Shown: positions 1 to 18,572 of the stretch, one piece after another
Position numbering within the stretch: the stretch's first letter is position 1
How the letters are laid out: every line of letters starts with the position of its first letter
Source: a virus
Length of the DNA stretch: 19,087 nucleotides
Reading direction: 5' to 3' (one strand)
IMG/VR virus record: IMGVR_UViG_3300043386_000006
Span: 1 to 19,087 of that record
Position numbers and translations under genes: made by a program
The notes under the pieces: generated by a model
What the model saw: only the letters and a program-made list of their open reading frames with translations
Databases searched by the model: none
Told to the model about the DNA's origin: nothing

Positions 1-115
1 GCGCCGGCACGAGGCGCTCGCCGGCGCTGTCCAGGGCGTCGAACGGGGTGAGCTGCCACCGGGCTTGGTAGTCGGTGATGATCCCGTCGACGTCGTAGTC
101 GGACTCGAGTCCGCT
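1..115. repeat. Left copy of an exact 115-bp terminal direct repeat (identical to 18973..19087)
   Basis: Read directly: gcgccggcacgaggcgctcgccggcgctgtcc...gtcgtagtcggactcgagtccgct is present at both ends of the window. The repeat lies inside an open reading frame, so it is most simply the overlap of a circular or concatemeric assembly. Confidence 0.95.
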
Positions 116-568
116 CAGACTCTGGACGATCTGGGCCCTGAGGTCCCGGTCGGTGTACGGCTCGGGGAACTGTTCGGCACCTGCGGGGTTGCCGGAGCGG
201 TCCGCGGCCGCTTCCGGGTCGTCCGGCTGGTCGTCGTGGCTGGTAATCAAGGGTTGTCCACCTTCCGGGTGAATGTCCGATGCATCATAATTGTCGTTTT
301 GGTGCAGTGGTTCGCCCTGGATATCGACGTGGCTGTCCGGGCCGATGCACGGGCACAGAGTGCAGTCCCCGGCCTCGTCGTGGTCGCTCTGTTTGTGCTG
401 GCACCCAAGGTTGGCGCACTCAGGTTCGGTGATCACGTAATCCGCCTTTTGATGTAGTCCCTCAAACTGCCTCATATGCCACCGGTCGATACATGGCCGT
501 TCGTCACCATCGAGCATCATCAGCACCGCGCCGGAACGGCCGCACGTAGGACAGCGGCCGGCCGTCAT
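1..568 (-). CDS. Hypothetical Cys-rich, acidic protein: N-terminal part of an ORF that crosses the window junction and continues at 18972..18644 (298 aa in total)
   Basis: Not in the ORF track because it has no stop inside the left edge. Hand translation of the minus strand from ATG 568..566 gives MTAGRCPTCGRSGAVLMMLDGDERPCIDRWHMRQFEGLHQKADYVITEPECANLGCQHKQSDHDEAGDCTLCPCIGPDSHVDIQGEP... There is an in-frame stop just upstream (586..584) and an ATGA overlap with the stop of the 565..759 gene. Third codon positions are mostly G/C. The frame runs through the 115-bp repeat into track ORF 18644..18982, and 568+329 nt = 897 nt = 299 codons. Confidence 0.75.
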   Translation of the reverse strand, partial: MTAGRCPTCGRSGAVLMMLDGDERPCIDRWHMRQFEGLHQKADYVITEPECANLGCQHKQSDHDEAGDCTLCPCIGPDSHVDIQGEPLHQNDNYDASDIHPEGGQPLITSHDDQPDDPEAAADRSGNPAGAEQFPEPYTDRDLRAQIVQSLSGLESDYDVDGIITDYQARWQLTPFDALDSAGERLVPA

Positions 569-759
569 GCGCCGTGCCTCAGCTCAAACCACCGATTCGG
601 CCAGATGCGCCACCCCTCAGCCCGTCTGAAGTAGCCCTTGTTGATCCGGACGGGATGGAGCAGTCCGAACGTGTGCGGCTGGTGAGCGACCAGGGTGTCA
701 TTGCAGGCAACGTACCGGCGCCACGCCGCCGCGCGTCGCCGCTGCCGGGCCCGGCTCAC
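565..759 (-). CDS. Hypothetical small basic protein (64 aa from GTG 759; alternative ATG 777 gives 70 aa)
   Basis: This is the C-terminal part of track ORF 565..864: ...SRARQRRRAAAWRRYVACNDTLVAHQPHTFGLLHPVRINKGYFRRAEGWRIWPNRWFELRHGA. It has a GTGA overlap with the stop of 756..983 and an ATGA overlap with the start of the junction-spanning ORF. The upstream 30 codons of the track ORF are Pro/Arg-rich and overlap the previous gene. Confidence 0.55.
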   Translation of the reverse strand: MSRARQRRRAAAWRRYVACNDTLVAHQPHTFGLLHPVRINKGYFRRAEGWRIWPNRWFELRHGA

Positions 760-983
760 GGCCGTACCGCCCTGCATACGCACTCGCAGACGTGCGGGGC
801 CCGGCGTGGGCGGTAGCAGCGGCACATGAACATCGTGCCGATCTCCTGCCAGCGCCGGCCGCATGCCTCCCGCGGAGCTTCGGCCGCAGGATTTCCTGTC
901 CGGGGTGCGGAGCTCGCGGGCTCCGACAGGAGATTTTGCGGCGCCGGCGCCATCCGGGCGCCGGCGTCGAATGGTCCGGTCAT
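756..983 (-). CDS. Hypothetical 75-aa protein with a Cys-rich C-terminus (MFMCRCYRPRRAPHVCECVCRAVRP); contains repeat copy A
   Basis: This is the internal ATG (983) of track ORF 756..1025. There are ATGA/GTGA overlaps at both ends. Third positions are mostly G/C except across the embedded hairpin element (codons caa aat ... gca ... aca gga aat cct). Confidence 0.45.
   Translation of the reverse strand: MTGPFDAGARMAPAPQNLLSEPASSAPRTGNPAAEAPREACGRRWQEIGTMFMCRCYRPRRAPHVCECVCRAVRP
885..942. repeat. Copy A of a roughly 58-bp hairpin element, degenerate, in opposite orientation to copy B at 12642..12699
   Basis: The 36-nt core 888..923, aggatttcctgtccggggtgcggagctcgcgggctc, is identical to the reverse complement of 12660..12695. 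The flanks match with a few substitutions. The second arm (ccgacaggagatttt) has diverged, so the stem is imperfect. Confidence 0.9.
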
Positions 984-1078
984 CCTCGAAACACCCCGCC
1001 GGCGTACCAGCTGTAAACCGCGCACGCGGCGAGGAACGCGGCCAGCGTGACGAGGCGGAACCTCTCGCGCCCGGTCAT
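980..1078 (-). CDS. Putative 32-aa single-pass membrane peptide
   Basis: MTGRERFRLVTLAAFLAACAVYSWYAGGVFRG. ATG 1078 overlaps the stop of 1075..1425 (ATGA) and its stop overlaps ATG 983 (ATGA). It has a hydrophobic core. It is short, so support is weak. Confidence 0.4.
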   Translation of the reverse strand: MTGRERFRLVTLAAFLAACAVYSWYAGGVFRG

Positions 1079-1425
1079 CCTCGCCACGCTCGCGGGTCTT
1101 CGTCGTCCATCGGGCACGGGATCGAGCACTCGCCGTTGCAATCGTGATCGCGGCGCGGCAGCTCGATCACGGGAGCGAGGGTCGGCGGGACGTCCGGCAG
1201 CGCGGCGAACTTCGGGGTGTTGTTGCGGATCCTGGCAACAGCGGACGGGGTGGGCCACGCGCCGATGATGTCGGTAAGGAACGTGGTCACGATCGCGACC
1301 AGGGCCTGAGTCGCCGCGGTTCCGCCGCGGTAGCCATCGGCCCGGCGGGCAACGGCGTACGCGGCACGTAGGTACTGGTCGACATCTTTCGCGAACTGTT
1401 CAGAATCATTCGCATCGAGGGGCAT
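1075..1425 (-). CDS. Hypothetical protein (116 aa)
   Basis: Track ORF 1075..1434 is trimmed to ATG 1425, which is preceded by GAAAGG 8 nt upstream (cgaaaggtgacaccgATG). Third positions are strongly G/C. The C-terminus CNGECSIPCP is Cys-rich. No family was recognised. Confidence 0.7.
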   Translation of the reverse strand: MPLDANDSEQFAKDVDQYLRAAYAVARRADGYRGGTAATQALVAIVTTFLTDIIGAWPTPSAVARIRNNTPKFAALPDVPPTLAPVIELPRRDHDCNGECSIPCPMDDEDPRAWRG

Positions 1426-2209
1426 CGGTGTCACCTTTCGAGTGAATGTTGCGCTTTGCTGTTGACTTTCTGGGTTGGATCTTTACTGCCTGCCGGAGGG
1501 AGCGAGGAAGGGAGCACCCCACCCCTACTCGGACAATTGTTCGAGTAGGAGCGGGGTGGAAGCTGCCGTCAGTCGGTCGTCGGTCGCGTTCCACGCTCAG
1601 GGCATTACTCCTGAGCTAGGGCGGGATATGACGATGCCTCTCCACCCGGTGGCCACTCGGCCGCGCCGGTCCCGAATCGGGCCTTTGGGCTGCTGGTTGC
1701 CTCCACCGGGTCGCGCTCTGCACGCGGGACTTTGGGCCTACCGTCTGCGCCGCGGGCTCGCGCCCGGGGTCAACAAGTCCGTGGGGATCGTCTCCATCGC
1801 GCGTGGCTAGCTTCTGAGGCACGGGACGCGGGGCCCGGTCGTTTGGTTCGCGACTCAGGGTCGCACGTAGTTTCCGCCCATCTACGTTCGTGAATCCGCA
1901 GGCTGCAACCCCAACGTGCCGAATGGTGACCTCGGCGTGATTCCGCAGGATGTTTCCGGTATCCTGAGCCCTAGTGTTTTTTGGCTCGCACAGCATGATC
2001 GCTCCCCGGTCGGACTGCAACCCACCGCGCGGAGCGATTTTGCTTTTCTGGCTCACGCGGTCGCCTTCTTCCTGCGCGGTAGATAGCGGCGGCCGCCCGC
2101 CCAGTCCATCAGCCACACCCCTAGCGGGGGGCATTCCGCGGCCGGCGCGTGCCGGGCGCCGCACGTGTGTGTGCGCCACCTCGTAGACACGTGCGCGGCC
2201 GGTATCGCG
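1426..2209. other. 784-bp ORF-poor, stem-loop- and repeat-rich non-coding region (candidate origin or structured RNA)
   Basis: No frame has coding-like third-position bias. Stem-loops occur at 1519..1559, 1595..1616, 1865..1887, 1998..2038 and 2160..2195. Direct repeats occur at 1678/1725 and 1889/1936 (both 47 bp apart). G+C is locally lower, with A/T runs. Confidence 0.7.
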
Positions 2210-2509
2210 CTAGGCATGGCTCGGCGCGAAGTGCTGTCCGAGCCCAGGCCGTACCGCGGCCATGTCCTCCTTGGTGGGGAGACGGCCGATCTTGTCGCGG
2301 ACCGCGGCGACGTCCGTCACCTCGCTGCCGAGGAGCATGGTCGGCACCTGCTCCCCTGGTGCGCCGGACGGTCGGTAGCCTCGCATGACTCCCCGGCTGA
2401 TCATGCGGTCCACCGTTCGGGTGGAGCATCGTAGCTGCGTGGCCGCTAGCTGCCTGGTCACGTAGCCAGACATGAACGGTCGGGTCACGGTCTGCGCATT
2501 CTCATCCAT
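2210..2509 (-). CDS. Helix-turn-helix DNA-binding protein (excisionase/MerR-like HTH), 99 aa
   Basis: Track ORF 2210..2668 is trimmed to ATG 2509 (MDENAQTVTRPFMSGYVTRQLAATQLRCSTRTVDRMISRGVMRGYRPSG...). The segment YVTRQLAATQLRCSTRTVDRMISRG reads as a typical phage HTH. The upstream 53 track codons overlap the divergent plus-strand gene. Confidence 0.7.
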   Translation of the reverse strand: MDENAQTVTRPFMSGYVTRQLAATQLRCSTRTVDRMISRGVMRGYRPSGAPGEQVPTMLLGSEVTDVAAVRDKIGRLPTKEDMAAVRPGLGQHFAPSHA

Positions 2510-2555
2510 GCCCACATCTTGACAGGCGTGCGCTTCCAAGCGCAACGTGGTCCGC
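2510..2555. promoter_or_regulatory. Divergent control region with putative overlapping face-to-face promoters and a central dyad
   Basis: Plus strand: TTGACA 2519..2524, 18 nt, CAACGT 2543..2548, 7 nt, ATG 2556. Minus strand: TTGCGC (2545..2540), 18 nt, CAAGAT (2521..2516), 6 nt, ATG 2509. Dyad GCGCTTccAAGCGC lies at 2530..2543. There is no Shine-Dalgarno before either ATG, consistent with leaderless mRNAs. Hexamers are only partial matches. Confidence 0.35.
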
Positions 2556-2903
2556 ATGTTTGACACACTGAAGCTTCCCGATGACCCGACCCCCGGCGAT
2601 TTGTTCCGCGCGATCGCGGACTGGTACGACGGCAATCCGCAGCTGCACATGCCGACCGTGACGCTCAACGACCACCACGTCTACCACCGGCCGGACTACG
2701 CGACCGCGATGGACTACCTGTACGCCGTCGTGCAGTCCAACGTGTCGGATATCCACCACAACAGCGGGTGCCGGTACGCCGCCGTGGACCTGTCCCCGGT
2801 GGCAGGGCCGGGCCGGGTGCGGCTGAACGTGTACGCGCCGCTGCACGCAGGGTGCGACATCGTCAACACCTGTCACCACCCATCGCACACCGAAGAGTCC
2901 TAA
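2556..2903 (+). CDS. Hypothetical protein (115 aa from ATG 2556; GTG 2547 is possible)
   Basis: MFDTLKLPDDPTPGDLFRAIADWYDGNPQLHMPTVTLNDHHVYHRPDYATAMDYLYAVVQSNVSD... Third positions are strongly G/C. His-rich. No family was recognised. Confidence 0.7.
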   Translation: MFDTLKLPDDPTPGDLFRAIADWYDGNPQLHMPTVTLNDHHVYHRPDYATAMDYLYAVVQSNVSDIHHNSGCRYAAVDLSPVAGPGRVRLNVYAPLHAGCDIVNTCHHPSHTEES

Positions 2904-3067
2904 TGGCGCACGACGGGGTGATATCCGCGCGGCTACTGCGGTTGTTCGGCCCGGACGTTGCGGACTGGCCGGCGGTCCGTCTGCCCGATGAGATCACCGA
3001 TATGGACCCGGCGTCCTATGTCGGCATCGACCTGGACCCGGCGCGGCGCGGGCAGGTGCCGCGGTGA
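2903..3067 (+). CDS. Hypothetical small protein (54 aa)
   Basis: This is the internal ATG of track ORF 2768..3067. It overlaps the previous stop (TAATG). MAHDGVISARLLRLFGPDVADWPAVRLPDEITDMDPASYVGIDLDPARRGQVPR. G/C third positions. Confidence 0.55.
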   Translation: MAHDGVISARLLRLFGPDVADWPAVRLPDEITDMDPASYVGIDLDPARRGQVPR

Positions 3068-3276
3068 AGCGGCCGCCGTACGTGCCGCAGCACGCGCACC
3101 GGTCGCCGTGGCCTGTCGACCAGCGGGCCCGGTCGCTCGAGGAACCAGAACCGGCCCGGGTCGACCCGATCCGGTACCTGATCGTCGTCGTCGTAGCCGC
3201 GGTGATCGCCGGCACGGCGGCCGGCGTGCTCGCGGTCGCGTTGGCCGGGCCCGGCCCGGTGTGGGTGTGGCCGTGA
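3064..3276 (+). CDS. Putative single-pass membrane protein (70 aa)
   Basis: GTGA overlap with the previous stop. Hydrophobic segment IRYLIVVVVAAVIAGTAAGVLAVALAG. Confidence 0.55.
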   Translation: MKRPPYVPQHAHRSPWPVDQRARSLEEPEPARVDPIRYLIVVVVAAVIAGTAAGVLAVALAGPGPVWVWP

Positions 3277-3446
3277 CCGCCCCGTACCCGGCCGGGTACC
3301 GGCGCTGCCCGATCTGTCAGGCGTACATCGGGGCGCCGTGCACGACCGCAGCACAGGCGATCATCGACGGGGTGGTGACCGGATCGGGCGTTCAGCTCGA
3401 TCACCCGCACAAGGCCCGGAAGGTTCGGGCGGGCTGGGAAGACTAG
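3273..3446 (+). CDS. Hypothetical small protein with a CxxC-x8-C zinc-ribbon-like motif (57 aa)
   Basis: GTG 3273 overlaps the previous stop (GTGA). MTAPYPAGYRRCPICQAYIGAPCTTAAQAIIDGVVTGSGVQLDHPHKARKVRAGWED. GTG 3261 and 3267 are alternative starts. Confidence 0.5.
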   Translation: MTAPYPAGYRRCPICQAYIGAPCTTAAQAIIDGVVTGSGVQLDHPHKARKVRAGWED

Positions 3447-3455
3447 ACCGGCCAG

Positions 3456-3503
3456 CACAGATCGGCCCGGCACCCAATCGGATGGGTGCCGGGCCGATCT
3501 GTG
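3456..3503. terminator. Bidirectional stem-loop terminator between the convergent plus operon and the minus-strand lysis genes
   Basis: Perfect 20-bp stem cacagatcggcccggcaccc / gggtgccgggccgatctgtg with an 8-nt loop aatcggat. It sits 10 nt after the stop at 3446 and 110 nt after the endolysin stop. There is no U-tract, which is common in high-G+C actinobacterial terminators. Confidence 0.7.
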
Positions 3504-3613
3504 TGTGGACCTCGCCCCCATCGCAGGTGGGAGCTCAGCGCCCGGGACGCGCGTTTCTGGGGGACAGTTGCGCCCGGGACGTCGCCCACCGTAGCGGGCA
3601 ACGTCCATGATCG

Positions 3614-4276
3614 CTATCCCGCCGCAGGGGTGCCGGCGGCGAGCTGCGCTTCGATGCTCTTCAGCCGGGAAATCTTCTCGTCGTTGTGGGCGATCGACTC
3701 CCTACCGGCGTGAATCAGGATGTACTCGAACGCCTGCTCGACCGTGACGACCGTACCGATCGGCTTACCGATGGCCTTACACGCGTCGTCGCTGAGGGTA
3801 AACGTGTCGCTGAGCTGCATTTCGTCTCCGTTCATCTCCCGTAGGAGCGCCTCAGTGTGGGGGAATTTCCACGCACGGCCGTCGCTCTCATTCTGCGAAT
3901 GAGACTCCCAGTGCGTGTGTTCGTCGTGCGGGCTCGAGCCGTTGTAGGCGAGCTCTTTCCAGTTCTGGTTGTCGTGCTGGGCGATCTTGCGGTGTGAGAT
4001 CCACAGGTGCGCCCGGGAGTCCGCTTCGAAGTCCAGCTTGAGCGCCTCGAGGATGGCCCGTTCGTCGTCGGTCCCGTTCGGGGTGCCGGAGTTGAGCAGG
4101 TTGTTGTCCATGTCGAACGCATCGACGGTGCCGTCGCCGTCCGGCTGGTGTTGGCTGGTCCCGCCGTGCGCATCGTCGGCGTACCCACCATCGGATTTGA
4201 TGCTCCGGCGCGGGAGCAGCTTGTTGACCCCGTTGCGCCACGCGGTCAGTGCCGGATTGAGTCCGCCCCAGGTCAT
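3614..4276 (-). CDS. Putative endolysin (zinc-peptidase-like cell-wall hydrolase), 220 aa
   Basis: It lies immediately downstream of, and is ATGA-coupled to, a 2-TM holin-like gene at the end of the tail module. Motifs DDAHGGTSQHQPDGDGTVDAFD and SSPHDEHTHWE resemble the S-x-H...D and H-x-H metal-ligand motifs of peptidoglycan peptidases. The exact family was not resolved by eye. Confidence 0.6.
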   Translation of the reverse strand: MTWGGLNPALTAWRNGVNKLLPRRSIKSDGGYADDAHGGTSQHQPDGDGTVDAFDMDNNLLNSGTPNGTDDERAILEALKLDFEADSRAHLWISHRKIAQHDNQNWKELAYNGSSPHDEHTHWESHSQNESDGRAWKFPHTEALLREMNGDEMQLSDTFTLSDDACKAIGKPIGTVVTVEQAFEYILIHAGRESIAHNDEKISRLKSIEAQLAAGTPAAG

Positions 4277-4566
4277 GGCCGATCGCTCCTGTCCGTGTCG
4301 TCGTTGAGCCGGTTAGTGTTCTCCTCCGCGGCGGACGCGGCCCGGCCGCCCGCCCAGGTGGCCACCGTGTTCACGCCCAGCAGCGGTACCGCGATGGCGA
4401 TGCCGATGGTCTGCACCCAGGACCGGAATTCGGCCAGGTCCTGAGCGTCGCCGTAGATCGACAACAGGACGTAGGCGCCGATCGTCGCCAGTCCGAGCAC
4501 AGTGGTCAGTCCGAAAAACCCGAGTACGACGGCAGTGGGAGCCTTTTTCAGCCAGTCCATGAGCAT
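4273..4566 (-). CDS. Putative holin (97 aa, two hydrophobic segments, charged C-tail)
   Basis: Track ORF 4273..4587 is trimmed to ATG 4566, which is preceded by GGGGAGAGG. Segments APTAVVLGFFGLTTVLGLATIGAYVLLSIY and TIGIAIAVPLLGVNTVATWAGG, then the acidic/basic tail EENTNRLNDDTDRSDRP. It overlaps the endolysin start. Confidence 0.65.
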   Translation of the reverse strand: MLMDWLKKAPTAVVLGFFGLTTVLGLATIGAYVLLSIYGDAQDLAEFRSWVQTIGIAIAVPLLGVNTVATWAGGRAASAAEENTNRLNDDTDRSDRP

Positions 4567-4581
4567 TGGGCCTCTCCCCAG

Positions 4582-4601
4582 GATCACCCGTATGGGTGAT
4601 C
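4582..4601. promoter_or_regulatory. Perfect 8-bp stem / 4-nt loop hairpin or dyad (GATCACCC gtat GGGTGATC) abutting a TAGAAT -10-like hexamer upstream of the lysis genes
   Basis: Read directly. On the minus strand, TAGAAT (4607..4602) sits immediately 5' of the dyad, which lies between 4647..4847 and the holin start. Its function (terminator, operator or promoter element) is undetermined. Confidence 0.35.
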
Positions 4602-4646
4602 ATTCTACGTCTGCCGTACGACTATCTACCCTGGTCAAACGGTCTG

Positions 4647-4847
4647 CTACCCCTCATACGTCGTGTCCAGGTCGACCAGCTCGAGCGGCCCCGTGACGGC
4701 GCCGGCGTCGTCGATGGTCAGCTTGACCGGGTCGGTGCCGGCGGTCGCAAGCCGGGCCCGCGTGCGCGGTACCGCTTCGGGCATGTCGAACCAGGGCTGT
4801 AGGCCCGGCATGCCGTCCGGGTCATAAATCAGGTACTGAGCGAGCAC
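4647..4847 (-). CDS. Hypothetical small protein (66 aa)
   Basis: The GTG start is preceded by AAGGAG 8 nt upstream. MLAQYLIYDPDGMPGLQPWFDMPEAVPRTRARLATAGTDPVKLTIDDAGAVTGPLELVDLDTTYEG. Confidence 0.65.
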   Translation of the reverse strand: MLAQYLIYDPDGMPGLQPWFDMPEAVPRTRARLATAGTDPVKLTIDDAGAVTGPLELVDLDTTYEG

Positions 4848-4859
4848 CGGGGGTTCTCC

Positions 4860-5441
4860 TTACGTCGGGTAGGCGAGCTTGAGCTCAAACGTGCTGGCGA
4901 ACTGGAACGACAGTGCGGTCAGCTGCGCGACGGCTGCGCCGTTCGTGTGCTGCGTCATCAGCTCGAGATAGTCGGTGCTCCCGTTCATGAACACGGTGAC
5001 CGGGGTGACCGGGAGCATGTTCGTCGACGCGATCTGCACGGACGGCAGCGGCGGTTTCGTCGCCGGCGGTATGGCCGTTGACCCGTTCTGCCGGATCCAC
5101 GAATACATGGTGATGTAGTCGGTCCGGTTGCCGAGTGCGACCGCCCCCCAAACTTCGTACCAGCCCTGAATGGTCGGGGTGAGCCGAGTGTTGTTGGTGA
5201 CGGTGTCGTGCCAGTTCGACGCGTCCAGGGTCTCGCTGGACGCGCCGAACTGCAGCGCCGTCGCAGTGTTGTGCGCGATGCTCTGCGTGGCCTGCGCGAC
5301 CAGCCGGGCCCGCGGCCGGGAGTCGACCGAGGCGACATCAGCGTCGATCGCGGTGGCCAGGTTCTGGAAGTAGGCGGCTAGCTGGTCGACAGTGTCGGTG
5401 AGCTGCGGGTACGGGTAGCCGCGCGCAGTGTTTGCGGTCAT
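4860..5441 (-). CDS. Minor tail protein / candidate receptor-binding protein (193 aa)
   Basis: The N-terminus MTANTARGYPYPQLTDTVDQLAAYFQNLATAID is the kind of conserved anchor seen in actinophage minor tail/fibre proteins. The C-terminal half is beta-rich. It is the last gene of the tail block. Confidence 0.6.
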   Translation of the reverse strand: MTANTARGYPYPQLTDTVDQLAAYFQNLATAIDADVASVDSRPRARLVAQATQSIAHNTATALQFGASSETLDASNWHDTVTNNTRLTPTIQGWYEVWGAVALGNRTDYITMYSWIRQNGSTAIPPATKPPLPSVQIASTNMLPVTPVTVFMNGSTDYLELMTQHTNGAAVAQLTALSFQFASTFELKLAYPT

Positions 5442-5442
5442 G

Positions 5443-6198
5443 TCAGCGACTCCATTGGATCGTGAGTTGACAGGATGCGGAGTACCGGCCGCGGCCGTCC
5501 AGGATGACGTACGGCGACCCGTCAGATTCGTAGACTGCGATCCCGCCGGCAGTCCCGTTGATCATTTCCTGGGCCCATGAGTTAGGCAGCTGCCACCGGG
5601 TCGCCTGTCCCCACGCCAGGTTTGGCCCGTCGGTGCTGGCGCCCAGCGTCGGCGCGCCGGACGGCCGGGTCCGTTCGGTGACCAGCCGCAGCGTCGTGTC
5701 TTGCGCCGCGGTGATCCCGCCGGCGGACCGGCGCCGCAGCTGCAGATAGCACGCGGTCGCGGTCGCGCCGGAGAGGCTGCGCGGACCGTTGCCGTAGAAC
5801 GCGCACCCGATGTGGTTTCCCTGCCCCCCGTACTGCCCCTGATAGACGTCGTCGTTGTCGGTGCGCCACTTCGAACCCTGCCTCGAGCGGGTCTCCACCG
5901 GGGTGAACGTCTTCGACCCGGTCACGACCGACGGTTTCGGTGGTGGCGGCGCCGGGTTGTCCGGGTCGCCGGCGGTCGCCGCGGTATCGAGCCGGCACGT
6001 CACCACCCACACGCCGCCGGCACGCATGAACGCAACCCGGTCGCCGGCGGCAAACGTCACGTCCCGGGCCGCGTTCATCGTGATAGCGATCCCGCCCACG
6101 GTCACGGACAGCAGACCGGCGGCTTTCGCGCCGGCCGCGATGCCGATTCCGGCCGCAATCCCGTCCAGGCTGGCCCGGTTTCCCGCTGGATCAGTCAA
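5443..6198 (-). CDS. Minor tail protein (251 aa)
   Basis: The TTG start is preceded by AAGGTGG and overlaps the previous gene by 8 nt. It has a Gly/Ala-rich N-terminus, a PAPPPPKP linker and a beta-rich C-terminal domain. Position is within the tail-tip block. Confidence 0.6.
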   Translation of the reverse strand: MTDPAGNRASLDGIAAGIGIAAGAKAAGLLSVTVGGIAITMNAARDVTFAAGDRVAFMRAGGVWVVTCRLDTAATAGDPDNPAPPPPKPSVVTGSKTFTPVETRSRQGSKWRTDNDDVYQGQYGGQGNHIGCAFYGNGPRSLSGATATACYLQLRRRSAGGITAAQDTTLRLVTERTRPSGAPTLGASTDGPNLAWGQATRWQLPNSWAQEMINGTAGGIAVYESDGSPYVILDGRGRYSASCQLTIQWSR

Positions 6199-7288
6199 CG
6201 GTGACCACCTTGATTTTCATCGGTCCGGTAGCGAACAGCGGCAGGTTCATCGCCTCGACCGTGCAGAGCAGGTCAGTCCCGTAGTCACAGGTGATCGTGA
6301 CGACGTCGCCGATCTGCAGCGTCGGATCGGGTACCGCGGTGATGCTGTACGCGCGGCGTGCTGCCTGCCGGAGTTTGTTGCGCATGATCGACCGGGCGGC
6401 CGAGTAGGCGCCGGCGCGGTCGCCGATCAGCGGGCTGGAGTAGACGTACGGCACGGGCAGCGGGTTGGCCTGTCCGCCCGGGTACGCCCAGGGCCCGGTG
6501 GGGACGTACTGGGTGCCGCGGACTTCGGTCCCGTCCGGCTGGTACCCGGTCGCGAGCACGGCGTTGAAAGCGCCGTCGCGGGTGGACTTGCCGGCCGCGG
6601 TGATCACGGTTCCGCCCGTGCCGGACGTGTAGGCGGCCACGATGTCCGCGGTGGTGGGTAGGTCGTCGGGGAGGACCTGGAGGTACCCGCCTTCGTTCAT
6701 GCGGACGCTCGCCGGCCACGTGTCGATGAGTTCGTAGAACGCGGCGAGCCTGTCGACGTCAAAGTTGACCGGGTTCGAAGGCAGCGCCTTGTCGGCCGGC
6801 GCGGCGGTCATGTCGATGGTCAGCGCCGGCTCGACCAGGGCCCGCGCGGTCGCCGCTACCGTCCCGGTCGGCTGGAACGGGGCGATAAACCGAGCCTCAT
6901 CGATGAGCGCCAGCAGACCGACCGCGGTAACGGTCAGCGTCTCGCCGTCGTCTGCCTGGTCGGTTTCCTGGATCAGGAACTCGCCGCGCTGAAACCAGGC
7001 GATGCCGTCGGGGCCCTGCCCGATGCCGAGTGAGATTTTCAGGGTCTGCCCGTTCGCTGCGAGCGGCGAGTCTTCGTCCGATGGTGTCCAGTCGGTACCG
7101 AACGCTCGTTTGGGCACGGTGAGCGTGACCCGTTCCGGGACGCGTAGGGACCGGTCGGTCTCTTCGGAACCGGCGGTCACCGGTACGTCCGTGGCCAGCA
7201 ACTCATCGCCGAGCCACGCTTGCGCGTTGAACCGGTATTCGTAGCTGCCGCCCAGGATGGCCCGCACTGTGTCGGAGACGTCGATCAT
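6191..7288 (-). CDS. Minor tail protein, Tal-like tail-tip protein by position (365 aa)
   Basis: Track ORF 6191..7498 is trimmed to ATG 7288, which has an ATGA overlap with the stop of 7285..8676. MIDVSDTVRAILGGSYEYRFNAQAWLGDELLATDVPVTAGSEETDRSLRVPERVTLTVPKR... The upstream 70 track codons are Arg/Gly/Pro-rich and overlap the previous gene. Confidence 0.65.
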   Translation of the reverse strand: MIDVSDTVRAILGGSYEYRFNAQAWLGDELLATDVPVTAGSEETDRSLRVPERVTLTVPKRAFGTDWTPSDEDSPLAANGQTLKISLGIGQGPDGIAWFQRGEFLIQETDQADDGETLTVTAVGLLALIDEARFIAPFQPTGTVAATARALVEPALTIDMTAAPADKALPSNPVNFDVDRLAAFYELIDTWPASVRMNEGGYLQVLPDDLPTTADIVAAYTSGTGGTVITAAGKSTRDGAFNAVLATGYQPDGTEVRGTQYVPTGPWAYPGGQANPLPVPYVYSSPLIGDRAGAYSAARSIMRNKLRQAARRAYSITAVPDPTLQIGDVVTITCDYGTDLLCTVEAMNLPLFATGPMKIKVVTVD

Positions 7289-8676
7289 GAGAGATCCGCC
7301 TGTGCGAGATCGATGAACGTCGCGTAGTCCGCGCCGAGGTCCTGCAGCGTGTTCGGGGGCGGGTACGCCGCTGCAAGGTCCGCCAGCGTGAAGCCGCGTG
7401 CGACCAGCGCCAGCGACCAGCCGTCGACCTCGGCGAATTCGATGGTCACGAGCCGGGCCTGTTTCGTCCCGTCCTGCAGCCACCGCCGGGTGCTCCACCG
7501 GTCAACGGCTAGGTACGCGTCGATGCCGTCGTAGCCGCCCGGCTGACGCACCTGGACGATGCCGTCGGTGGCTGTGGCCAGCAGGTCGATCAGGTTGTCG
7601 TACGACGTCGTGGTTTCCACCAACAGTTCGTAGCTGCCCTCATCCTGTCCAGCCGGGCCGACCACGACCACGTTGCGGCCTGCCACCCGCATCCGGGCCG
7701 CGTCTCTGCCGTTGGTCCGGTCTCCCTCGGCGCCGATGACGACTTCGGCGGCCGCCCCGGTGATCGCGTCGCTCAGCGCCACCTTGCCGCCGGTCAGCGT
7801 GTAGGTGACCGCCGATGTCGTGTACTCCGCGGCGCCGGCGACCACGATCACGTAGGCGACCGGTACGCCGAACGGCAGCTCAGCATCGAGGATCAGCGCC
7901 GCGGTATCGGTGGCCGCGGTGACCGCGCCGCGGAGCTCGGTGCGGACGCCGGCGACCAGCCGGTACGCGGTGACCGAATCGCCGATGGTCAGCCCGGTCA
8001 CGGCGATCTGGTTGCGGGGCGGCCACGTGTCCAGGTTGGTCACCGTGACCGCGGCCGCCGGCTTCAGGGCGAGGAGCAGGCCGCGGGAGATCGCCGCGGC
8101 GCCACCGGTGACGGTCACCGCGGCGGACACGATGTCCGCCTCGGTCGTCTGGATTTGGTAGTACATCGCCTGGAATGCATCGTCGCCGGTGGTCGTCGAC
8201 GTCATCCCGATAGCGGTCCACCCGCCCGGGGTGGTGAGGCTGGTGGCGTCGTCCTGCTTCCAGAGCGCCATCAGGAGCGCGTGAGCGTCCTCCGGTACGT
8301 CCAGGGATGGGTACGTGACGTTCTGGGCGCTGGCGTTGAGCACAGCGGCGCTGGTCGTCTGTGTGAGCGCGTCCGGGGACACGTTGCGGAACGCCGCGAC
8401 CCGGCCGATGGTGTCCGCGTTGGCCACGCCGCCGGTGAACGTGATCACGGGCGCGGTGACGGCCGGGTTGTAGAAGCGGCCGAGCACCGACACGTTGCCG
8501 CTGGTGGCCACCACCGACCAGCCGGACGCGCCGGCGACCGTGCCCGTGCCGGAGTTGCGGATACTCGCCAGTGCGAGGAGCAGGTCACCAGTGACGACGC
8601 CGGCCGGCAGCGCCGGCGACACCGATGCGTTGTTTCCGGTCGCGGCCGCGCCGGCGCCGACGTAGGTGATCGTCAT
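7285..8676 (-). CDS. Minor tail protein, distal-tail (Dit)-like C-terminal part with a long N-terminal extension (463 aa)
   Basis: Track ORF 7285..8700 is trimmed to ATG 8676, which has an ATGA overlap with the tape measure stop. It is the first gene after the tape measure, the usual Dit position. The N-terminal roughly 220 aa look like two related modules (see findings). Confidence 0.6.
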   Translation of the reverse strand: MTITYVGAGAAATGNNASVSPALPAGVVTGDLLLALASIRNSGTGTVAGASGWSVVATSGNVSVLGRFYNPAVTAPVITFTGGVANADTIGRVAAFRNVSPDALTQTTSAAVLNASAQNVTYPSLDVPEDAHALLMALWKQDDATSLTTPGGWTAIGMTSTTTGDDAFQAMYYQIQTTEADIVSAAVTVTGGAAAISRGLLLALKPAAAVTVTNLDTWPPRNQIAVTGLTIGDSVTAYRLVAGVRTELRGAVTAATDTAALILDAELPFGVPVAYVIVVAGAAEYTTSAVTYTLTGGKVALSDAITGAAAEVVIGAEGDRTNGRDAARMRVAGRNVVVVGPAGQDEGSYELLVETTTSYDNLIDLLATATDGIVQVRQPGGYDGIDAYLAVDRWSTRRWLQDGTKQARLVTIEFAEVDGWSLALVARGFTLADLAAAYPPPNTLQDLGADYATFIDLAQADLS

Positions 8677-10391
8677 CGGGTGCCGACTCTCTGGCGCCAC
8701 GCGTCGCGTTTGGACCGCGCGGTGATCATCCGATCGGTGGTCGTGTAGACGATGCTGCCGTCCAGGGTGACCGTCACGTAGTTGTCCAGGCGCTCTGCCA
8801 TCGGGGCCCGGGCGGGCTCGGCCGGCCGCGGTTCGCTGCCAGCGAACAGGAACGGGCTCGCCGAGTTGTTTTTGCTGATCGCGGACGCAAGCGCGGAATC
8901 GGAGAGTTTCGAGCCGGTGATCTTGCGCGCGATGGTGATCGTGACGGTCTTGCCTTTGAGCGAGTTGATCTTGTCCTGGAGTGCGCGAATGTCACCCTGC
9001 GCAGGTTTCGTGTTCGCGTTGATCTTGACATCTTTCTTCACCGGGATCAGCCCCAGCGACGTCGCGAGCTCCTCAGCTTTTTGCTTGCTCCCGGTCATCG
9101 ACGTAGCGAGCTTGACGAACTGGGCCCTGTTCTGCTCGGCGACCGCGGACGCTTCGGCGCCTTCGCCGTTGACCTTGACCGTCGCGTTGTACTGCTCGAT
9201 CAGGGCGGCCGCGAGCCCGGACAGCGCCTCACGGTTCGCGCGGCCCTTCTCTGTGTTCGCGTCCAGGGTCTGACCGTTCTTCTTCGCCGCGTCCGATACC
9301 TGATCGATCGCGGCACCGACCCGGGTCGCAGAGTTGAACAACGACTGTCCGGCGGTCGCAAGGCCGTTCACCTGTTCGGTGAAATTCGCGATCGCGGTGC
9401 TCGAGCCGAGAATGGCCCGGCCGTAATCGTCGAACTGGATCGCGCCGGCGCCGGCCGCGGTCGCGGTGCTGTCGACCCCGGCCCGGGCCATCCGGATCTT
9501 GCCGGTCACGTGCTCCGCGGCGCCTCCTGTGTCCTCGAGGAAGTGGGTTAGCGTGCCGATCGGGCCCAGCAGACCGGCGAAGAATTGCCCGGTGAAACCG
9601 ATCTTGCTGAGCCACCCGTACATGGTGGTCAGCGCGTAGATCGTGGGCCCGGTGATGTCCAGGACCAGCCCGATACCGTCGGTGACGTCGCCCAGGGCGG
9701 CCGCGGCGCCATCGCTGCCCTTGCTGACGGTGTCCAGGAACTGGCCGACGTCTTCGCCCAGGTCACCGATCGAGTCGCCGATCTGTGCCATGACCGGCCC
9801 GGACCGTGCGGTGAGTTTCTCGACCCCGTCGCCGATCCCCTCGATCCCGCGGGCCACGCCGTCGATCAGCGGTCCGACGTTCTTGGCGCCCTGAGCGAAG
9901 ATGGACTCGAAGTCGATCGTGTCGAGAGCGTCTTCGATCTTGGCGATGCCGTCGACGGTGGTCTGTACGAACGGCTGGGCGGCGTGGGTGAGCTCGATCG
10001 AGACCCGGTTCTTCATCCCTCGGGCGGCCGCCTGGACACGGGGATCATCGGCGACCAGGGCGATACCACCGACGATCCCGCCGGCACCGACCCCACCGAT
10101 CACCGCGGCGGACATTGAGGCGGCGATCAGCGGCGCCGCGGCGACCGCGGCGCCGGCCAGCAGGGGCGTCGCCGCTTCCGATGCGGACGCGAACCCGCGG
10201 GTCAGCCCGGCGGCGAGCTTCGGCGAAACGGCGGCCGCCATCTTGACCATGTTGTTCGCGAAGTCGCTGCCGAGCTTGTCGCCGTCTTTCTTAATCGACT
10301 CCGCGGTGCGTTTCATCCGGCGTTGCGCGGACGCTGCAGCCTCACCGGTCTTGTCGCTGGCCGTGTAGTTGAATTCGACGTCTCTGGGCAC
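8673..10391 (-). CDS. Tape measure protein (572 aa)
   Basis: It is the longest ORF of the tail block. It is Ala/Gly-rich and helical-looking, with a Gly-rich hydrophobic stretch AAVIGGVGAGGIVGGIALVADD. It lies between the chaperone region and the tail-tip genes. GTG start. Confidence 0.85.
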   Translation of the reverse strand: MPRDVEFNYTASDKTGEAAASAQRRMKRTAESIKKDGDKLGSDFANNMVKMAAAVSPKLAAGLTRGFASASEAATPLLAGAAVAAAPLIAASMSAAVIGGVGAGGIVGGIALVADDPRVQAAARGMKNRVSIELTHAAQPFVQTTVDGIAKIEDALDTIDFESIFAQGAKNVGPLIDGVARGIEGIGDGVEKLTARSGPVMAQIGDSIGDLGEDVGQFLDTVSKGSDGAAAALGDVTDGIGLVLDITGPTIYALTTMYGWLSKIGFTGQFFAGLLGPIGTLTHFLEDTGGAAEHVTGKIRMARAGVDSTATAAGAGAIQFDDYGRAILGSSTAIANFTEQVNGLATAGQSLFNSATRVGAAIDQVSDAAKKNGQTLDANTEKGRANREALSGLAAALIEQYNATVKVNGEGAEASAVAEQNRAQFVKLATSMTGSKQKAEELATSLGLIPVKKDVKINANTKPAQGDIRALQDKINSLKGKTVTITIARKITGSKLSDSALASAISKNNSASPFLFAGSEPRPAEPARAPMAERLDNYVTVTLDGSIVYTTTDRMITARSKRDAWRQRVGTR

Positions 10392-10394
10392 GGG

Positions 10395-10904
10395 TCACCG
10401 CCTCAGCTGGTCTAGGGCGCCGTCAACGGCACGGTCAATCGCGCCGTTGACCGTGTCCGCGGCGGCCGCGGCAGGCTCACGGAAGTAGCCGGGCGCCACC
10501 CGCACGGTGTGCCAGCTCGAACGGGTGCGGTGCCCCCATGACGGAGCTCGCACGCGGCCGCGGTCGATCGCGGCCATGTCGGAGCGGCCGCCGGCGGAGT
10601 TGCGGCCGCCGCGGAGCAGCATCGACACCCGCCGGGAGTTGATCTTGATGCTCGCGTTGACGCGGGCTGCGGCCACCCACCGGCCCAGCCCACCCCGCGC
10701 GGGCAACGTGGTCAGCGCCCGGGCACGGATCGTCTTGCGGATTGCGGGCAGCGGCTCACGCAGCCCCTTTCGCATGGCCTTGACGACCTCGCGCCGGCCG
10801 TCGAACGCGCGGAGCTCCGCGGCCACGATCCGCCAGTCCGCCACCCCGCTCACCCCTTCATGGTCAACATGTCTTCCAGCGTGATCAGGCACCGGTCGGT
10901 CCAC
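10395..10904 (-). CDS. Hypothetical tail-module protein between chaperone and tape measure; possibly the T-like extension of the chaperone (start uncertain: GTG 10904 or GTG 10844 with GAAGGGG upstream)
   Basis: G/C third positions. ...ADWRIVAAELRAFDGRREVVKAMRKGLREPLPAIRKTIRARALTTLPARGGLGRWVAAARVNASIKINSRRVSMLLRGG... Its frame stays open upstream to 11003, overlapping the last 44 nt of the chaperone gene. Confidence 0.55.
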   Translation of the reverse strand: MDRPVPDHAGRHVDHEGVSGVADWRIVAAELRAFDGRREVVKAMRKGLREPLPAIRKTIRARALTTLPARGGLGRWVAAARVNASIKINSRRVSMLLRGGRNSAGGRSDMAAIDRGRVRAPSWGHRTRSSWHTVRVAPGYFREPAAAAADTVNGAIDRAVDGALDQLRR

Positions 10905-10959
10905 ACGGTCGGATCCAGTAGGTCGCGCAGCGGTTGCCCGCTGGCCACCGCTAGGTGGA

Positions 10960-11241
10960 TCAGTCCTCGGCGGAACGATCCGGCTGGGTAGGGTCCACCT
11001 CGATCACGTCGTCCTCCGCCACCTCGGCGAGTAGGAGATCGGCGTTGAACTTCGGCCAGCTCAGCCCGGTTTGCTTCTCCCGGACGCTGGCGCAGTAGGC
11101 CCAGAACCGCATCCGGGTGACGGTCCGATCTTCCCGGTAGAAGTCCTGCATCTCCCAGGTGGCGTAATCGCGCTGGTCGATGGTGACGACGTACTTGCGG
11201 CCGTCGGCCATCTCGACGCCAAGTTTGAGACGGCCGGCCAT
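10960..11241 (-). CDS. Tail assembly chaperone (gpG-like by position), 93 aa
   Basis: A small acidic-tailed ORF directly after the major tail gene (start shares 1 nt with its stop) and before the tape measure. MAGRLKLGVEMADGRKYVVTIDQRDYATWEMQDFYREDRTVTRMRFWAY...EDDVIEVDPTQPDRSAED. Confidence 0.6.
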   Translation of the reverse strand: MAGRLKLGVEMADGRKYVVTIDQRDYATWEMQDFYREDRTVTRMRFWAYCASVREKQTGLSWPKFNADLLLAEVAEDDVIEVDPTQPDRSAED

Positions 11242-11645
11242 CAGGCGCTAGTGCTGGTCGTGACGGCGCCCTGAACGGAGAAGGTCACATCGAATTCGCG
11301 CCACGTGCCCTCTTCACCGCCCAGCGGCATGGACCCGGACGGGACGAACATCGAGAACGCGCGGACCGTCTTGCCCGTGCCCACTTCGGCCTGGAACTCG
11401 ACGTCCACCACCGTGCCCTGTGCGGCGACCAGCGCGGTGTACAACGCGCTGCCCTGCAGCCCCTTCAGCTGGAACGTGTAGGCGGGGGTGCCCTGGTCGA
11501 CAACCTGGCCGGTCGGTGCGAGGGTCGTATAGACCTCCGTGTTCGTCTCCGCGGACGGCATGAGCGCAGTGTTTACGTCGCTCGCGTAGTCCACATCGTC
11601 GATCGACACGACCGCGTACCGCTGCTTGCCCTTGGTATCCGGCAT
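11241..11645 (-). CDS. Major tail protein (134 aa)
   Basis: Strong SD (GAGGGAGTAGAGG) before ATG 11645. It is beta-rich and Thr/Val/Gly-rich. It sits between the connector genes and the chaperone, the canonical siphovirus order. Confidence 0.7.
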   Translation of the reverse strand: MPDTKGKQRYAVVSIDDVDYASDVNTALMPSAETNTEVYTTLAPTGQVVDQGTPAYTFQLKGLQGSALYTALVAAQGTVVDVEFQAEVGTGKTVRAFSMFVPSGSMPLGGEEGTWREFDVTFSVQGAVTTSTSA

Positions 11646-11650
11646 GACCT

Positions 11651-11995
11651 CTACTCCCTCTCACTCGTGATCAAAATCCCGTATACCGGGCTGTTGTCGA
11701 CACCCAAATTGGCCGGCTCATAAGCGGTCACCCACGTCACCGGTCGCAGCGCGGTCAGGACGTCGTCAATGTGGTCGTCGACCCATGCGTCCGCGGCCGC
11801 CTCACCCTGCGGGGTGACGATCACGATCCGCCACACGTGATCGAACCCGCCGGCGCTGTCGTCGCCGCGATCGGCCTGCCACCGTAGCCACGCGTCCCCG
11901 GTCCGCGGCGTCGACGGCCGGGCCGGGTAGCACTTGACCCCGTCGATCGTGTTGAGCGCCGCAGTGATCTCGGCCCGCGCGGTCGCGATGCTCAC
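11651..11995 (-). CDS. Head-tail connector / tail-terminator-like protein (114 aa)
   Basis: Track ORF 11651..12187 is trimmed to GTG 11995, which has a GTGA overlap with the adaptor stop. VSIATARAEITAALNTIDGVKCYPARPSTPRTGDAWLRWQADRG...VYGILITSERE. It lies directly upstream of the major tail gene. The upstream track codons are Arg/Ala/Pro-rich. Confidence 0.5.
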   Translation of the reverse strand: MSIATARAEITAALNTIDGVKCYPARPSTPRTGDAWLRWQADRGDDSAGGFDHVWRIVIVTPQGEAAADAWVDDHIDDVLTALRPVTWVTAYEPANLGVDNSPVYGILITSERE

Positions 11996-12582
11996 CTGCC
12001 GACCAGCTTCCGGAACGGCCGTTCGAACCGGCGGATTTCCTGGTCGAGAGTCGGGACCACCGACAGTGACCCGTCTTCGGCGCCGGGCACGGTCAGCGCG
12101 GGCTGACCGCGCATGATCAGATTGCGCCAGCAGCGGCGCAGCAGCGCTTGCCGCAGGTCCGGCGGGTACGCCGCCGGCACGTCGCACACGCGGCGCTGGG
12201 CGTTCGTCTCGGCGTCCAGGGCGTCGGCCAGTTGGTCATCAGTCCAGCTGTGATCCTCGAGGTACTCCGCCACGTCGACGATGGTGGGCATGTCCGCCGC
12301 GGTGACGACCCCGGTCACAAACGCGGTGAAGTCCACCGCACCGTGGCCGGTGGTGACGGCCCGGGCGATGTGCCGGCCGGGGGCGGCCACGATGTACTCC
12401 GCCCGGTACCAGCCGCACCCGTCGACCGCGACGGTCGGTACATCGGTGGTGGCGTCCGGCCGGGTCACCGTGACCACAGGCACGTCGCCGGCCAGTTCGT
12501 CGCCCTGCACGGCGATCACCCACAGGCCGGACACCGGCAGCTCAACGCTCGTCGCGGTTTTCGCCGTGATCGTGCTGGCCAC
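11992..12582 (-). CDS. Head-tail adaptor (gp6/gp15-like C-terminal part) with an N-terminal beta-rich extension of roughly 85 aa (196 aa)
   Basis: Track ORF 11992..12678 is trimmed to GTG 12582, which is preceded by GGGAAGGGGGG. The C-terminal segment MPTIVDVAEYLEDHSWTDDQLADALDAETNAQRRVCDVPAAYPPDLRQALLRRCWRNL reads like phage head-tail connector/adaptor proteins. The track N-terminus would run through the intergenic hairpin. Confidence 0.6.
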   Translation of the reverse strand: MASTITAKTATSVELPVSGLWVIAVQGDELAGDVPVVTVTRPDATTDVPTVAVDGCGWYRAEYIVAAPGRHIARAVTTGHGAVDFTAFVTGVVTAADMPTIVDVAEYLEDHSWTDDQLADALDAETNAQRRVCDVPAAYPPDLRQALLRRCWRNLIMRGQPALTVPGAEDGSLSVVPTLDQEIRRFERPFRKLVGR

Positions 12583-12600
12583 GGGCCCCCCTTCCCTACG

Positions 12601-12640
12601 GATTACCGGATTGCGATTACCGGTAATCCGATAATCCGCG
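12601..12640. repeat. Cluster of direct and inverted GATTACCGG / CCGGTAATC motifs, including a perfect 14-bp palindrome
   Basis: gattaccgg at 12601..12609 and 12615..12623. Palindrome gattaccggtaatc at 12615..12628. Related ccgataatccg at 12628..12638. It is locally A/T-richer than its surroundings and lies between hairpin B and the adaptor SD. Confidence 0.85.
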
Positions 12641-12641
12641 G

Positions 12642-12699
12642 CCGAAGGATTTCCTGTCCGAGCCCGCGAGCTCCGCACCCCGGACAGGAAATCCTTCGG
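12642..12699. terminator. Copy B of the hairpin element: perfect 19-bp stem, 20-nt loop, in the head/tail intergenic gap (candidate terminator, attenuator or processing site)
   Basis: ccgaaggatttcctgtccg (12642..12660) pairs perfectly with cggacaggaaatccttcgg (12681..12699). The loop is agcccgcgagctccgcaccc. It starts 8 nt after the stop of 12707..12946. There is no U-tract. Confidence 0.6.
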
Positions 12700-12706
12700 T
12701 TCTTTC

Positions 12707-12946
12707 TCAGCTGTCCCCGGTCCGCTTCGGGGTCCGCTTGCGGCCGGCGGCCGCGACCGGCTGGTCGTCGGCCGGCTCGGGCGCCTCGCCCTGGTCCTCG
12801 AGCTCCGCCGGCTCGGCCGGGTCGTCGCCGGCGGCCGCGACCGGCTGGTCGTCGGCGCCCTGCAGCACGGCGAGCTGTGCGCGAAGCTCGGCGTTCTCCT
12901 GCTCGAGCTCGGCCACCCGTGCCCGGGTCTGCGCGATCTTCGCCAT
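12707..12946 (-). CDS. Small coiled-coil / acidic Pro-rich protein with an internal repeat (79 aa); possible scaffold- or decoration-like head protein
   Basis: MAKIAQTRARVAELEQENAELRAQLAVLQG, then ADDQPVAAAG twice. An exact 30-bp DNA repeat occurs at 12743..12772 and 12827..12856. It lies directly after the capsid gene. Confidence 0.65.
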   Translation of the reverse strand: MAKIAQTRARVAELEQENAELRAQLAVLQGADDQPVAAAGDDPAEPAELEDQGEAPEPADDQPVAAAGRKRTPKRTGDS

Positions 12947-12949
12947 GAG

Positions 12950-18565: not shown

Positions 18566-18572
18566 AACGCGG

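Follow-up and report, generated by a model that had tools for sequence, protein, structure and literature searches.

A conserved structured element precedes the leftward genes

The window analyzed here is the whole 19,087-nt stretch that makes up positions 1 to 19,087 of IMG/VR virus record IMGVR_UViG_3300043386_000006, from a small, tailed, high-G+C phage. It is a circular or concatemeric assembly of a genome with a unit length of 18,972 bp, bases 1-115 recurring at 18973-19087 as an exact 115-bp direct repeat. The genes run leftward from 1425 round the circle to 3614, except in a short block (2547-~3450) that runs rightward, divergent from a helix-turn-helix (HTH) gene. A preliminary description made from the sequence alone had singled out the 784 bp between the HTH gene and the next leftward start (1426-2209) as poor in open reading frames (ORFs) and heavily structured, and had preferred an origin or host-factor recruitment region to a large structured RNA or leader of the leftward genes. 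We find that positions ~1985-1517, read on the minus strand, are predicted to encode a conserved, highly structured RNA of ~470 nt (Table 1). This RNA is most likely previously undescribed since it has no match in Rfam, though unnamed fragments of it might be present in the IMG/VR structured-RNA catalogue (Fremin et al. 2023, PMC10690425).

Relatives were collected as IMG/VR contigs retrieved with TerL and with a 220-aa protein; the HTH protein used as a query returned no loci. When window positions 1-3700 were compared with these relatives by blastn, the matches were confined to the region of interest: 1498-1850 matched L004, and the core at 1714-1796 matched L005 and L006 at 78-82% identity. 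The RNA core is 80-82% identical where the TerL proteins are only 46-50% identical to that of the window. In a four-way alignment the hairpins keep their pairing through double changes, and the insertions and deletions (indels) are not multiples of three. Two degenerate DNA patterns for the core matched 11 viral contigs with lengths of 16.4-20 kb, another two of only 6.1 and 10.6 kb, and 16 contigs from metagenomes; a match in L022 was judged to be chance and discarded. The two pattern scans of 185,579 reference genomes gave zero matches, and so there is neither a prophage copy nor a host assignment. A TerL-profile scan added 80 loci, and an 89-nt covariance model (R1) run on the 80 sources recovered the element only in the window (95 bits), L090 and L091. 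The final set comprises 21 distinct full-length homologs and one truncated copy, and possession of the element sets a subclade apart among these small phages.

The conservation is that of a paired structure. Across 16 sequences RNAalifold predicted 72-79 pairs, 51-55 of them with compensatory changes. In this set 94.1% of alignment cells were paired compared with 38-48% when the partners were slid by 1-3 columns, 51 of 72 pairs had changed on both sides, and the observed values were reached by 0 of 500 shuffles. With 21 sequences and 95 pairs, both pseudoknots included, 87.7% of cells were paired compared with 36-50% after sliding, and 70 pairs had changed on both sides, again matched by none of 500 shuffles; the low-scoring helices in this count are those poorly aligned by MAFFT, namely P1, Px and the promoter hairpin. 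Single-sequence folding gave z-scores of -2.05 for the minus strand and -1.67 for the plus strand, which do not discriminate between the strands. Because these scores are weak, the case for structure rests on the comparative evidence and not on folding energy: the description of the region as heavily structured is borne out by covariation in the relatives but not by the folding of one sequence. Similarly, four of the five stem-loops listed at the outset are real and conserved with compensatory changes (1519-1559, here H11; 1595-1616, H10; 1865-1887, P4; and 1998-2038), whereas the fifth, at 2160-2195, lies inside a small ORF (2053..2217) and outside the conserved element. Both A-runs noticed in the initial reading, at 2039-2049 and about 1975-1983, are real and conserved.

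The covariance-model search that had been proposed matched no family. Rfam 15 (4227 models, covering riboswitches, ribozymes, 6S/Ms1, tmRNA, RNase P, GOLLD, ROOL, OLE and HEARO), run on the whole window at E<=1, returned nothing in 1426-2209. With the region alone at E<=10 there were only weak chance matches of 11.6-18.9 bits, compared with gathering thresholds of 44-140. ARAGORN found 0 tRNA or tmRNA genes in the window.

The region does not evolve as a long coding sequence

The longest ORF of the region is a 187-aa frame at 1616..2179 on the minus strand, and weak tblastx matches in several frames might be taken to indicate that this or another frame encodes a protein. These matches lie on both strands as well as in several frames, as expected of conservation at the nucleotide level. 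A conserved protein homolog, named beforehand as evidence against a noncoding region, was not found for the 187-aa frame among 5.8 billion proteins (E <= 0.001), and the frame has no Pfam or PHROG match. Its G+C content at third codon positions (GC3) is 0.69, compared with 0.82 in the HTH gene and 0.89-0.92 in the genes for TerL and for the major capsid protein. In the comparison with L015, the closest relative at 82% nucleotide identity, the three codon positions carry 40/36/22 substitutions, the third changing least; in L015 the frame is disrupted by indels of 1, 1, 1, 3 and 17 nt and contains stop codons. The same comparison for TerL as a control gave 88/71/213, with indels of 3 and 24 nt. 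We agree that the 187-aa frame is not a gene and see next to no chance that it or any other frame of the region encodes a protein. A plus-strand ORF at 1475..1810, hinted at by composition phase, was also rejected (GC3 0.74, aperiodic substitutions, frame-breaking indels).

The RNA itself differs from that of the closest relative at 74 of 470 positions, distributed 29/18/27 over the codon positions and hence without periodicity, with indels of 1-4 and 15 nt. Three-base periodicity of base composition is weak across 1440-2040, unlike the strong G+C periodicity of the neighboring genes. The comparative alignment suggested for telling compensatory from codon-like change thus yields compensatory base changes and no codon periodicity.

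The earlier statement that 1426-2209 holds no convincing coding sequence stands for the long frames but not for the right ~160 nt, where the small ORF at 2053..2217 on the minus strand is probably a real gene. The gap is therefore real but smaller than 784 bp, its true extent being about 1426-2052. The product of this ORF is a diverged member of a small zinc-finger family (~50-75 aa) of the CxxC...CxxH type, whose motif is VWLVLxLCxxC...YCxxH and whose members often have a basic tail; the window copy has lost the cysteines. The family has no Pfam or PHROG match. Its genes occur only in RNA-positive loci, in 21 of 21, and in each case directly precede the RNA or its promoter (for example, L006 13100-13303 and L090 6562-6786).

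Architecture of the RNA

From 5' to 3' the fold consists of a 5' hairpin domain, an H-type pseudoknot, a multi-helix core, a second long-range pseudoknot and a GC-rich 3' hairpin. In the 5' domain the P1 stems were read by eye because MAFFT aligned them poorly, whereas P4 is 95% paired, with changes on both sides in 4 of its 6 pairs. The first pseudoknot forms when positions 1826-1830 of the Px loop, CCNCGCGW, pair with a downstream WCGCG at 1800-1804 to give helix H1. This helix is paired in 93% of cells, and one of its pairs (alignment columns 340/370) is AU in eight sequences and UA in eight. The Px stems were read sequence by sequence.

The core is closed by H2, of which 97.6% of cells are paired, and its helices show compensatory changes at nearly every pair. 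Within it, H6 resembles a boxB-type GNRNA hairpin, a likeness that we offer only as a lead. The second pseudoknot joins the motif ACGG-NN-GGCCCA in the core to CCCGCCC-NN-G. The NN/NN pairing was found by an all-against-all column scan, in which four different Watson-Crick combinations appeared; all 21 sequences pair here, the two variable pairs being UA:9/AU:7/CG:5 and AU:14/UA:6/CG:1.

Downstream, H10 is 96.6% paired with compensatory changes in 7 of 7 pairs, and H11 is 92.6% paired with a covarying upper stem. The two are separated by the CCGA-repeat linker, and a second UCGAGA copy follows H11 (CCAUCGAGAAG); the CCGA and UCGAGA repeats could be protein-binding or rut-like sites. A candidate long-range pairing of a 5' CUAGGGC with GCCCUAG had no covariation support and was dropped.

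Table 1. Predicted features of the RNA and its surroundings, followed by annotated genes of the window.
Feature	Position	Strand	Remarks
Small ORF, 54 codons	2053..2217	minus	ATG overlaps the HTH stop (ATGcCTAG); GC3 0.84; positional homologs in relatives
A-rich tract AGAAAAGCAAA	2039..2049	minus	Upstream of the promoter hairpin, downstream of the small-ORF stop; A-rich in most relatives
Promoter hairpin	1998..2038	minus	Arms 2031-2038 and 1998-2005; covarying; -35 box in loop
-35 hexamer TTGCAG	2015..2020	minus	TTGAC in 15/21 homologs
-10 hexamer CATGCT	1992..1997	minus	17 nt from -35; TAACCT in seven relatives
A-rich 5' end of RNA	about 1975-1983	minus	Conserved
P1 hairpin	1946..1966	minus	Conserved loop UACCGGAAAC; 53% of cells paired
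P4 hairpin	1865..1887	minus	6-bp covarying stem; conserved 11-14-nt purine-rich loop
Pseudoknot 1, H-type	1799..1837	minus	Stem Px 1834-1837 with 1822-1825; nested small hairpin 1810-1820
Core domain	1630..1792	minus	Closed by long-range helix H2 (1784-1792 with 1630-1638)
H3	1775-1780 with 1727-1732	minus	100% of cells paired
H4	1748-1772	minus	Tetraloop GCGA 1758-1761; 90.5% of cells paired
H6	1712-1726	minus	5-bp stem; invariant pentaloop GCAGA 1717-1721; 100% of cells paired
H7	1703-1711 with 1644-1652	minus	Encloses variable insert; 92.6% of cells paired
Pseudoknot 2	1617..1740	minus	UAGG 1737-1740 with CCUA 1617-1620
H9	1621-1623 with 1591-1593	minus	
H10 hairpin	1595-1616	minus	Conserved loop GUAAUG; invariant CCCGCCC just upstream
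C-rich CCGA-repeat linker CGACCGACGACCGACUGACGG	1566..1586	minus	Between H10 and H11; relatives have (CCGA)3-4, then UCGAGA
H11, GC-rich 3' hairpin	1517..1556	minus	CCCCRCCCC...GGGGYGGGG; 11+ bp, terminator-like, without U-tract
Pyrimidine-rich tail	1426..1515	minus	CUCCC...; CUCCCAUCGAGAAG in most relatives; then ribosome-binding site and start
HTH gene	2210-2510	minus	
HNH	18079-18366	minus	
TerS	17609-17977	minus	
TerL	16032-17612	minus	
Portal	14764-16326	minus	
Major head protein	12950-14764	minus	
Tape measure	8673-10391	minus	
Tail proteins		minus	

Strand of the fold

Because Watson-Crick covariation cannot tell the strands apart, we turned to signals that differ between them. The ratio of G-U to A-C cells in the minus sense is 72:18 over all pairs and 39:15 over internal pairs. 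Nine sequences have U-G at one pair midway along H2, where the plus strand would have C-A. The folding energy of the alignment is -113.3 for the minus strand and -104.0 for the plus strand. The minus-sense reading gives an H4 tetraloop that always fits GNRA (GCGA in 19 homologs, GUGA in 2) and UUCG loops in some variable hairpins, and the flanking genes are all on the minus strand. Taken together, these signals suggest that the structure very probably forms on the minus strand.

The opposite assignment would make the element either a plus-strand RNA whose 3' end is set by the hairpin and T-tract at 1998-2049 or a single-stranded DNA element resembling a single-strand origin in rolling-circle replication. 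It can draw on the symmetry of the covariation, on an alignment folding energy only about 9 kcal/mol worse for the plus strand, and on the fact that a canonical hairpin plus T-tract terminator is found only in the plus direction. The G-U:A-C asymmetry, the GNRA and UUCG loops seen in the minus sense only and the orientation of every flanking gene speak against it, and no conserved promoter for the plus strand lies left of 1517; we consider this alternative very improbable. The plus strand does carry a conserved TAnnnT (TATCCT at 1960-1965, the same bases as P1), followed ~35 nt later by the hairpin and T-tract, and these signals make possible an ~80-nt antisense RNA covering the promoter and the first ~15 nt of the RNA.

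Putative promoter and 3' end

A conserved motif of the sigma-A/sigma-70 promoter type is recognizable upstream of the RNA. Of the 21 sequences, 14 have the pattern TTGNNN-N16-18-NANNNT at the homologous position, compared with 3.6% of shuffles, and most of the others have a spacer of 19-20 nt. Transcription from this motif would start near 1984-1986, ahead of the conserved A-rich 5' end. The promoter hairpin is a candidate stop for the upstream HTH and zinc-finger transcript, and the A-rich tract at 2039-2049 could be either an UP-like element or the T-tract of the plus-strand terminator.

At the other end, no U-tract follows H11 in any homolog; the tail is C/U-mixed, and H11 does not qualify as an intrinsic terminator. 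The first leftward gene of the window starts with ATG at 1425 or GTG at 1434. In each of the relatives the RNA is followed by an ORF of the same direction that begins about 40-90 nt past H11, whatever it encodes. The spacing from H11 to the start codon in relatives, about 40-60 nt, leaves no room for a separate operon promoter. The identity of this first downstream gene varies (HNH in L004, unrelated ORFs elsewhere), whereas the upstream pair of HTH and zinc-finger genes is constant. A conserved CUCCC stands 8-12 nt upstream of the GGAG/GGGA ribosome-binding site.

A possible origin of replication

The preference of the preliminary description for an origin or host-factor recruitment region finds no support in iterons, DnaA boxes, base composition or skew. 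We found no iteron family in the region; DnaA-box-like sites number 3 against 2.98 expected, none of them in the region; and there is no AT-rich unwinding element, the G+C fraction of the region being 0.63-0.66. The cumulative GC-skew minimum lies near 2900, outside the element. What did hold up is the observation that the genome has no recognizable replication genes: Pfam and PHROG searches across the 19-kb genome recognized no DNA polymerase, primase, helicase, initiator or integrase.

Because of this last result an RNA-primed origin has to be considered, in which the element would act like ColE1 RNA II, a folded ~500-nt transcript that forms a persistent hybrid with DNA and primes host DNA polymerase. 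Such a role would explain replication without recognizable replication genes. The size of the RNA and its promoter arrangement are similar to those of RNA II, there are G-runs and C-runs at the 3' hairpin, and the plus-strand TAnnnT, hairpin and T-tract could give a short 5' antisense RNA reminiscent of RNA I. The putative antisense RNA, however, overlaps the RNA by only about 15 nt (vs about 108 nt for RNA I), and the RNA leads into a translated operon. Its constant position right before a ribosome-binding site would be left unexplained, relatives of similar size do without the RNA, and none of the origin signals listed above coincides with it. To our knowledge, ColE1-type replication is not known in Actinobacteria, which also counts against this idea. 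We regard a primer or origin RNA as quite improbable.

Genome context

No close relatives were found among GenBank phages, and TerL of the window is ~30% identical to those of cultured actinophages. The ~17-kb leftward operon contains the HNH, TerS, TerL, portal, capsid, tail and lysis genes. A Cys-rich gene of ~298 aa without a family match spans the circular junction. The stretch that separates the end of the rightward block from that of the leftward operon (3614) holds, at 3456-3503, two perfect inverted 21-bp arms around a 6-nt loop, which probably serve as a bidirectional terminator. A 58-nt near-perfect hairpin on the minus strand at 12642-12699 belongs to the late operon and comes shortly after the head-gene region. 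This hairpin produced a spurious Rfam match to mir-3660 (35 bits, E = 5e-4) and is a candidate for an internal attenuator, which processive antitermination would need to overcome. There is also an 18-nt direct repeat (CACCTTYCGRGTGAATGT) whose copies, at 259-276 and 1432-1449, are 89% identical; the former lies inside the 298-aa gene, and the latter is the ribosome-binding-site region of the first late gene.

In L092, a relative that lacks the RNA but has a homologous HTH gene, the same position before HNH-TerS-TerL is taken by ~900 nt (7870-8780) that are poor in ORFs, rich in hairpins and without detectable similarity to model R1. Given this shared position, long structured leaders may be a wider and fast-diverging feature of the phage group. 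The gene orders of the RNA-negative relatives are too different for a protein that replaces the RNA to be found among them.

Discussion

The alternative that the preliminary description had placed second, a large structured RNA or leader of the leftward genes, is the one that gained from the analysis: there is covariation that includes two pseudoknots, there is a leftward promoter motif, and the element sits before the first gene. Given this position, we propose that the single late operon has the RNA as its 5' leader, and that this leader acts in cis to control read-through or translation of the ~17 kb downstream, a function to which we assign about an even chance. Leftward transcription would begin at the RNA's own sigma-A/sigma-70-type promoter, just downstream of the HTH and zinc-finger genes, and would run into the first gene of the operon with no recognizable promoter between. 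The position of HNH upstream of TerS makes it most likely that cos lies between these two genes, and the late transcript would then have to cross the joined ends, as the pR' transcript does in lambda. The folded leader might then decide whether polymerase reads through H11 and the later hairpins or, alternatively, might set the exposure of the first ribosome-binding site, next to the CUCCC motif that resembles an anti-Shine-Dalgarno sequence. It may do so alone, like the put RNA of HK022 (mentioned in PMC9974457), or together with the adjacent zinc-finger and HTH proteins.

Several points weigh against a regulatory leader. The paired structure and its conservation, the strand bias, the promoter motif and the order of the genes are observed; transcription of the RNA, its 5' and 3' ends and its regulatory function are what we infer from sequence. 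The promoter hexamers of the window, TTGCAG and CATGCT, are weak matches that fall below the cut-off of a generic promoter and terminator scan, which called neither the promoter nor H11. Since it has no U-tract, H11 may not terminate at all, and neither the column scan nor inspection revealed a covarying alternative (antiterminator) partner for it. The plus-strand TAnnnT, hairpin and T-tract point to some transcription of the opposite strand. Many TerL-related small phages of similar size proved to lack the RNA in the search with model R1, so the RNA is not essential to this type of phage. Finally, at ~470 nt and with two pseudoknots the RNA goes far beyond known antitermination and attenuation leaders, which argues for an additional or different role.

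It is because the size and complexity of the fold exceed what known leaders need that a stand-alone function is a serious rival. The element would then be a gene for a trans-acting RNA, such as a ribozyme, a component of an RNA-protein complex, a decoy or anti-defence RNA, or an RNA that self-assembles like ROOL or GOLLD, and it would merely share its promoter with the late operon or be processed from the late transcript. Large size, two pseudoknots, a GNRA tetraloop and invariant single-stranded blocks are typical of ribozymes and 'ornate' RNAs and not of leaders, and the RNA has its own promoter motif and a strong 3' hairpin. The strict co-occurrence of a small zinc-finger protein with a basic tail fits such a function as well, and large phage-associated RNAs of unknown function exist (PMC12286853; PMC5737381). 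Set against this, no separate operon promoter fits after H11 in the relatives, so at least some transcripts would have to enter the operon. Moreover, Rfam gave no match to a ribozyme or large RNA, and neither a trans target nor a cleavage site can be named. We judge a stand-alone RNA to be unlikely, in spite of the attention it deserves.

If the RNA is a cis-acting leader, its nearest functional parallels would be putL and putR of HK022 and the EAR element of Bacillus, structured RNAs that closely follow a sigma-70-type promoter and open a long operon with internal hairpins. The element has the promoter-proximal position in a long operon that is expected of an antitermination RNA of this kind, and by analogy the RNA could act in cis without a dedicated large protein. 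The put RNA is about 70 nt long with two stem-loops, and EAR is about 120 nt. The RNA described here differs from both in its ~470 nt and two pseudoknots, it has no detectable similarity to them in sequence or structure, and antitermination by it is putative. The order of elements also recalls pR'-qut-6S RNA-tR' of lambda, where a promoter and a short hairpin-ended transcript precede a single long late operon that crosses the joined cos. In lambda, however, switching is done by the Q protein at the promoter and the leader RNA lacks a conserved fold, whereas here the RNA is the conserved structured object; no Q homolog was recognizable in this phage.

Leaders of the riboswitch, T-box and attenuator types share with the element a place in the 5' untranslated region, a conserved folded domain ahead of a hairpin, and a ribosome-binding site near an anti-Shine-Dalgarno-like CUCCC. 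Unlike them, the element is about twice as long as the largest riboswitch leaders and shows no Rfam aptamer, no U-tract and no detected alternative pairing. In its size, its many covarying helices, pseudoknots and GNRA loops and its unknown function, the element resembles GOLLD, ROOL, OLE and HEARO/omega RNA, which are likewise often associated with phages or prophages and were found by comparative genomics. It departs from these in lacking an Rfam match, in its architecture, in its high-G+C hosts and in its fixed position at the 5' end of an operon. GOLLD and ROOL are usually found near tRNA genes.

Large RNAs with complex folds supported by covariation are rare, and those that have been characterized are mostly ribozymes, riboswitches and unusual RNA machines. 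The present example is restricted to one clade of very small phages, high in G+C and represented solely by metagenomes, in which it occupies the single control point before all virion and lysis genes, and its roughly 21 divergent representatives suffice for a solid secondary-structure model with two pseudoknots. That it represents a new class of large pseudoknotted RNA doing, in a minimal ~19-kb phage without the usual proteins, a job usually done by protein, be it RNA-only antitermination of a 17-kb operon, RNA-primed replication or catalysis, is a tentative proposal and somewhat on the unlikely side. Should the RNA alone regulate late transcription, actinobacterial-type phages would have their first relative of the put-type antiterminators, and a far more elaborate one; if its role is instead replication priming, catalysis or self-assembly, the RNA would represent a new RNA function. 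With one promoter, one RNA and one operon, the system offers a compact and testable model.

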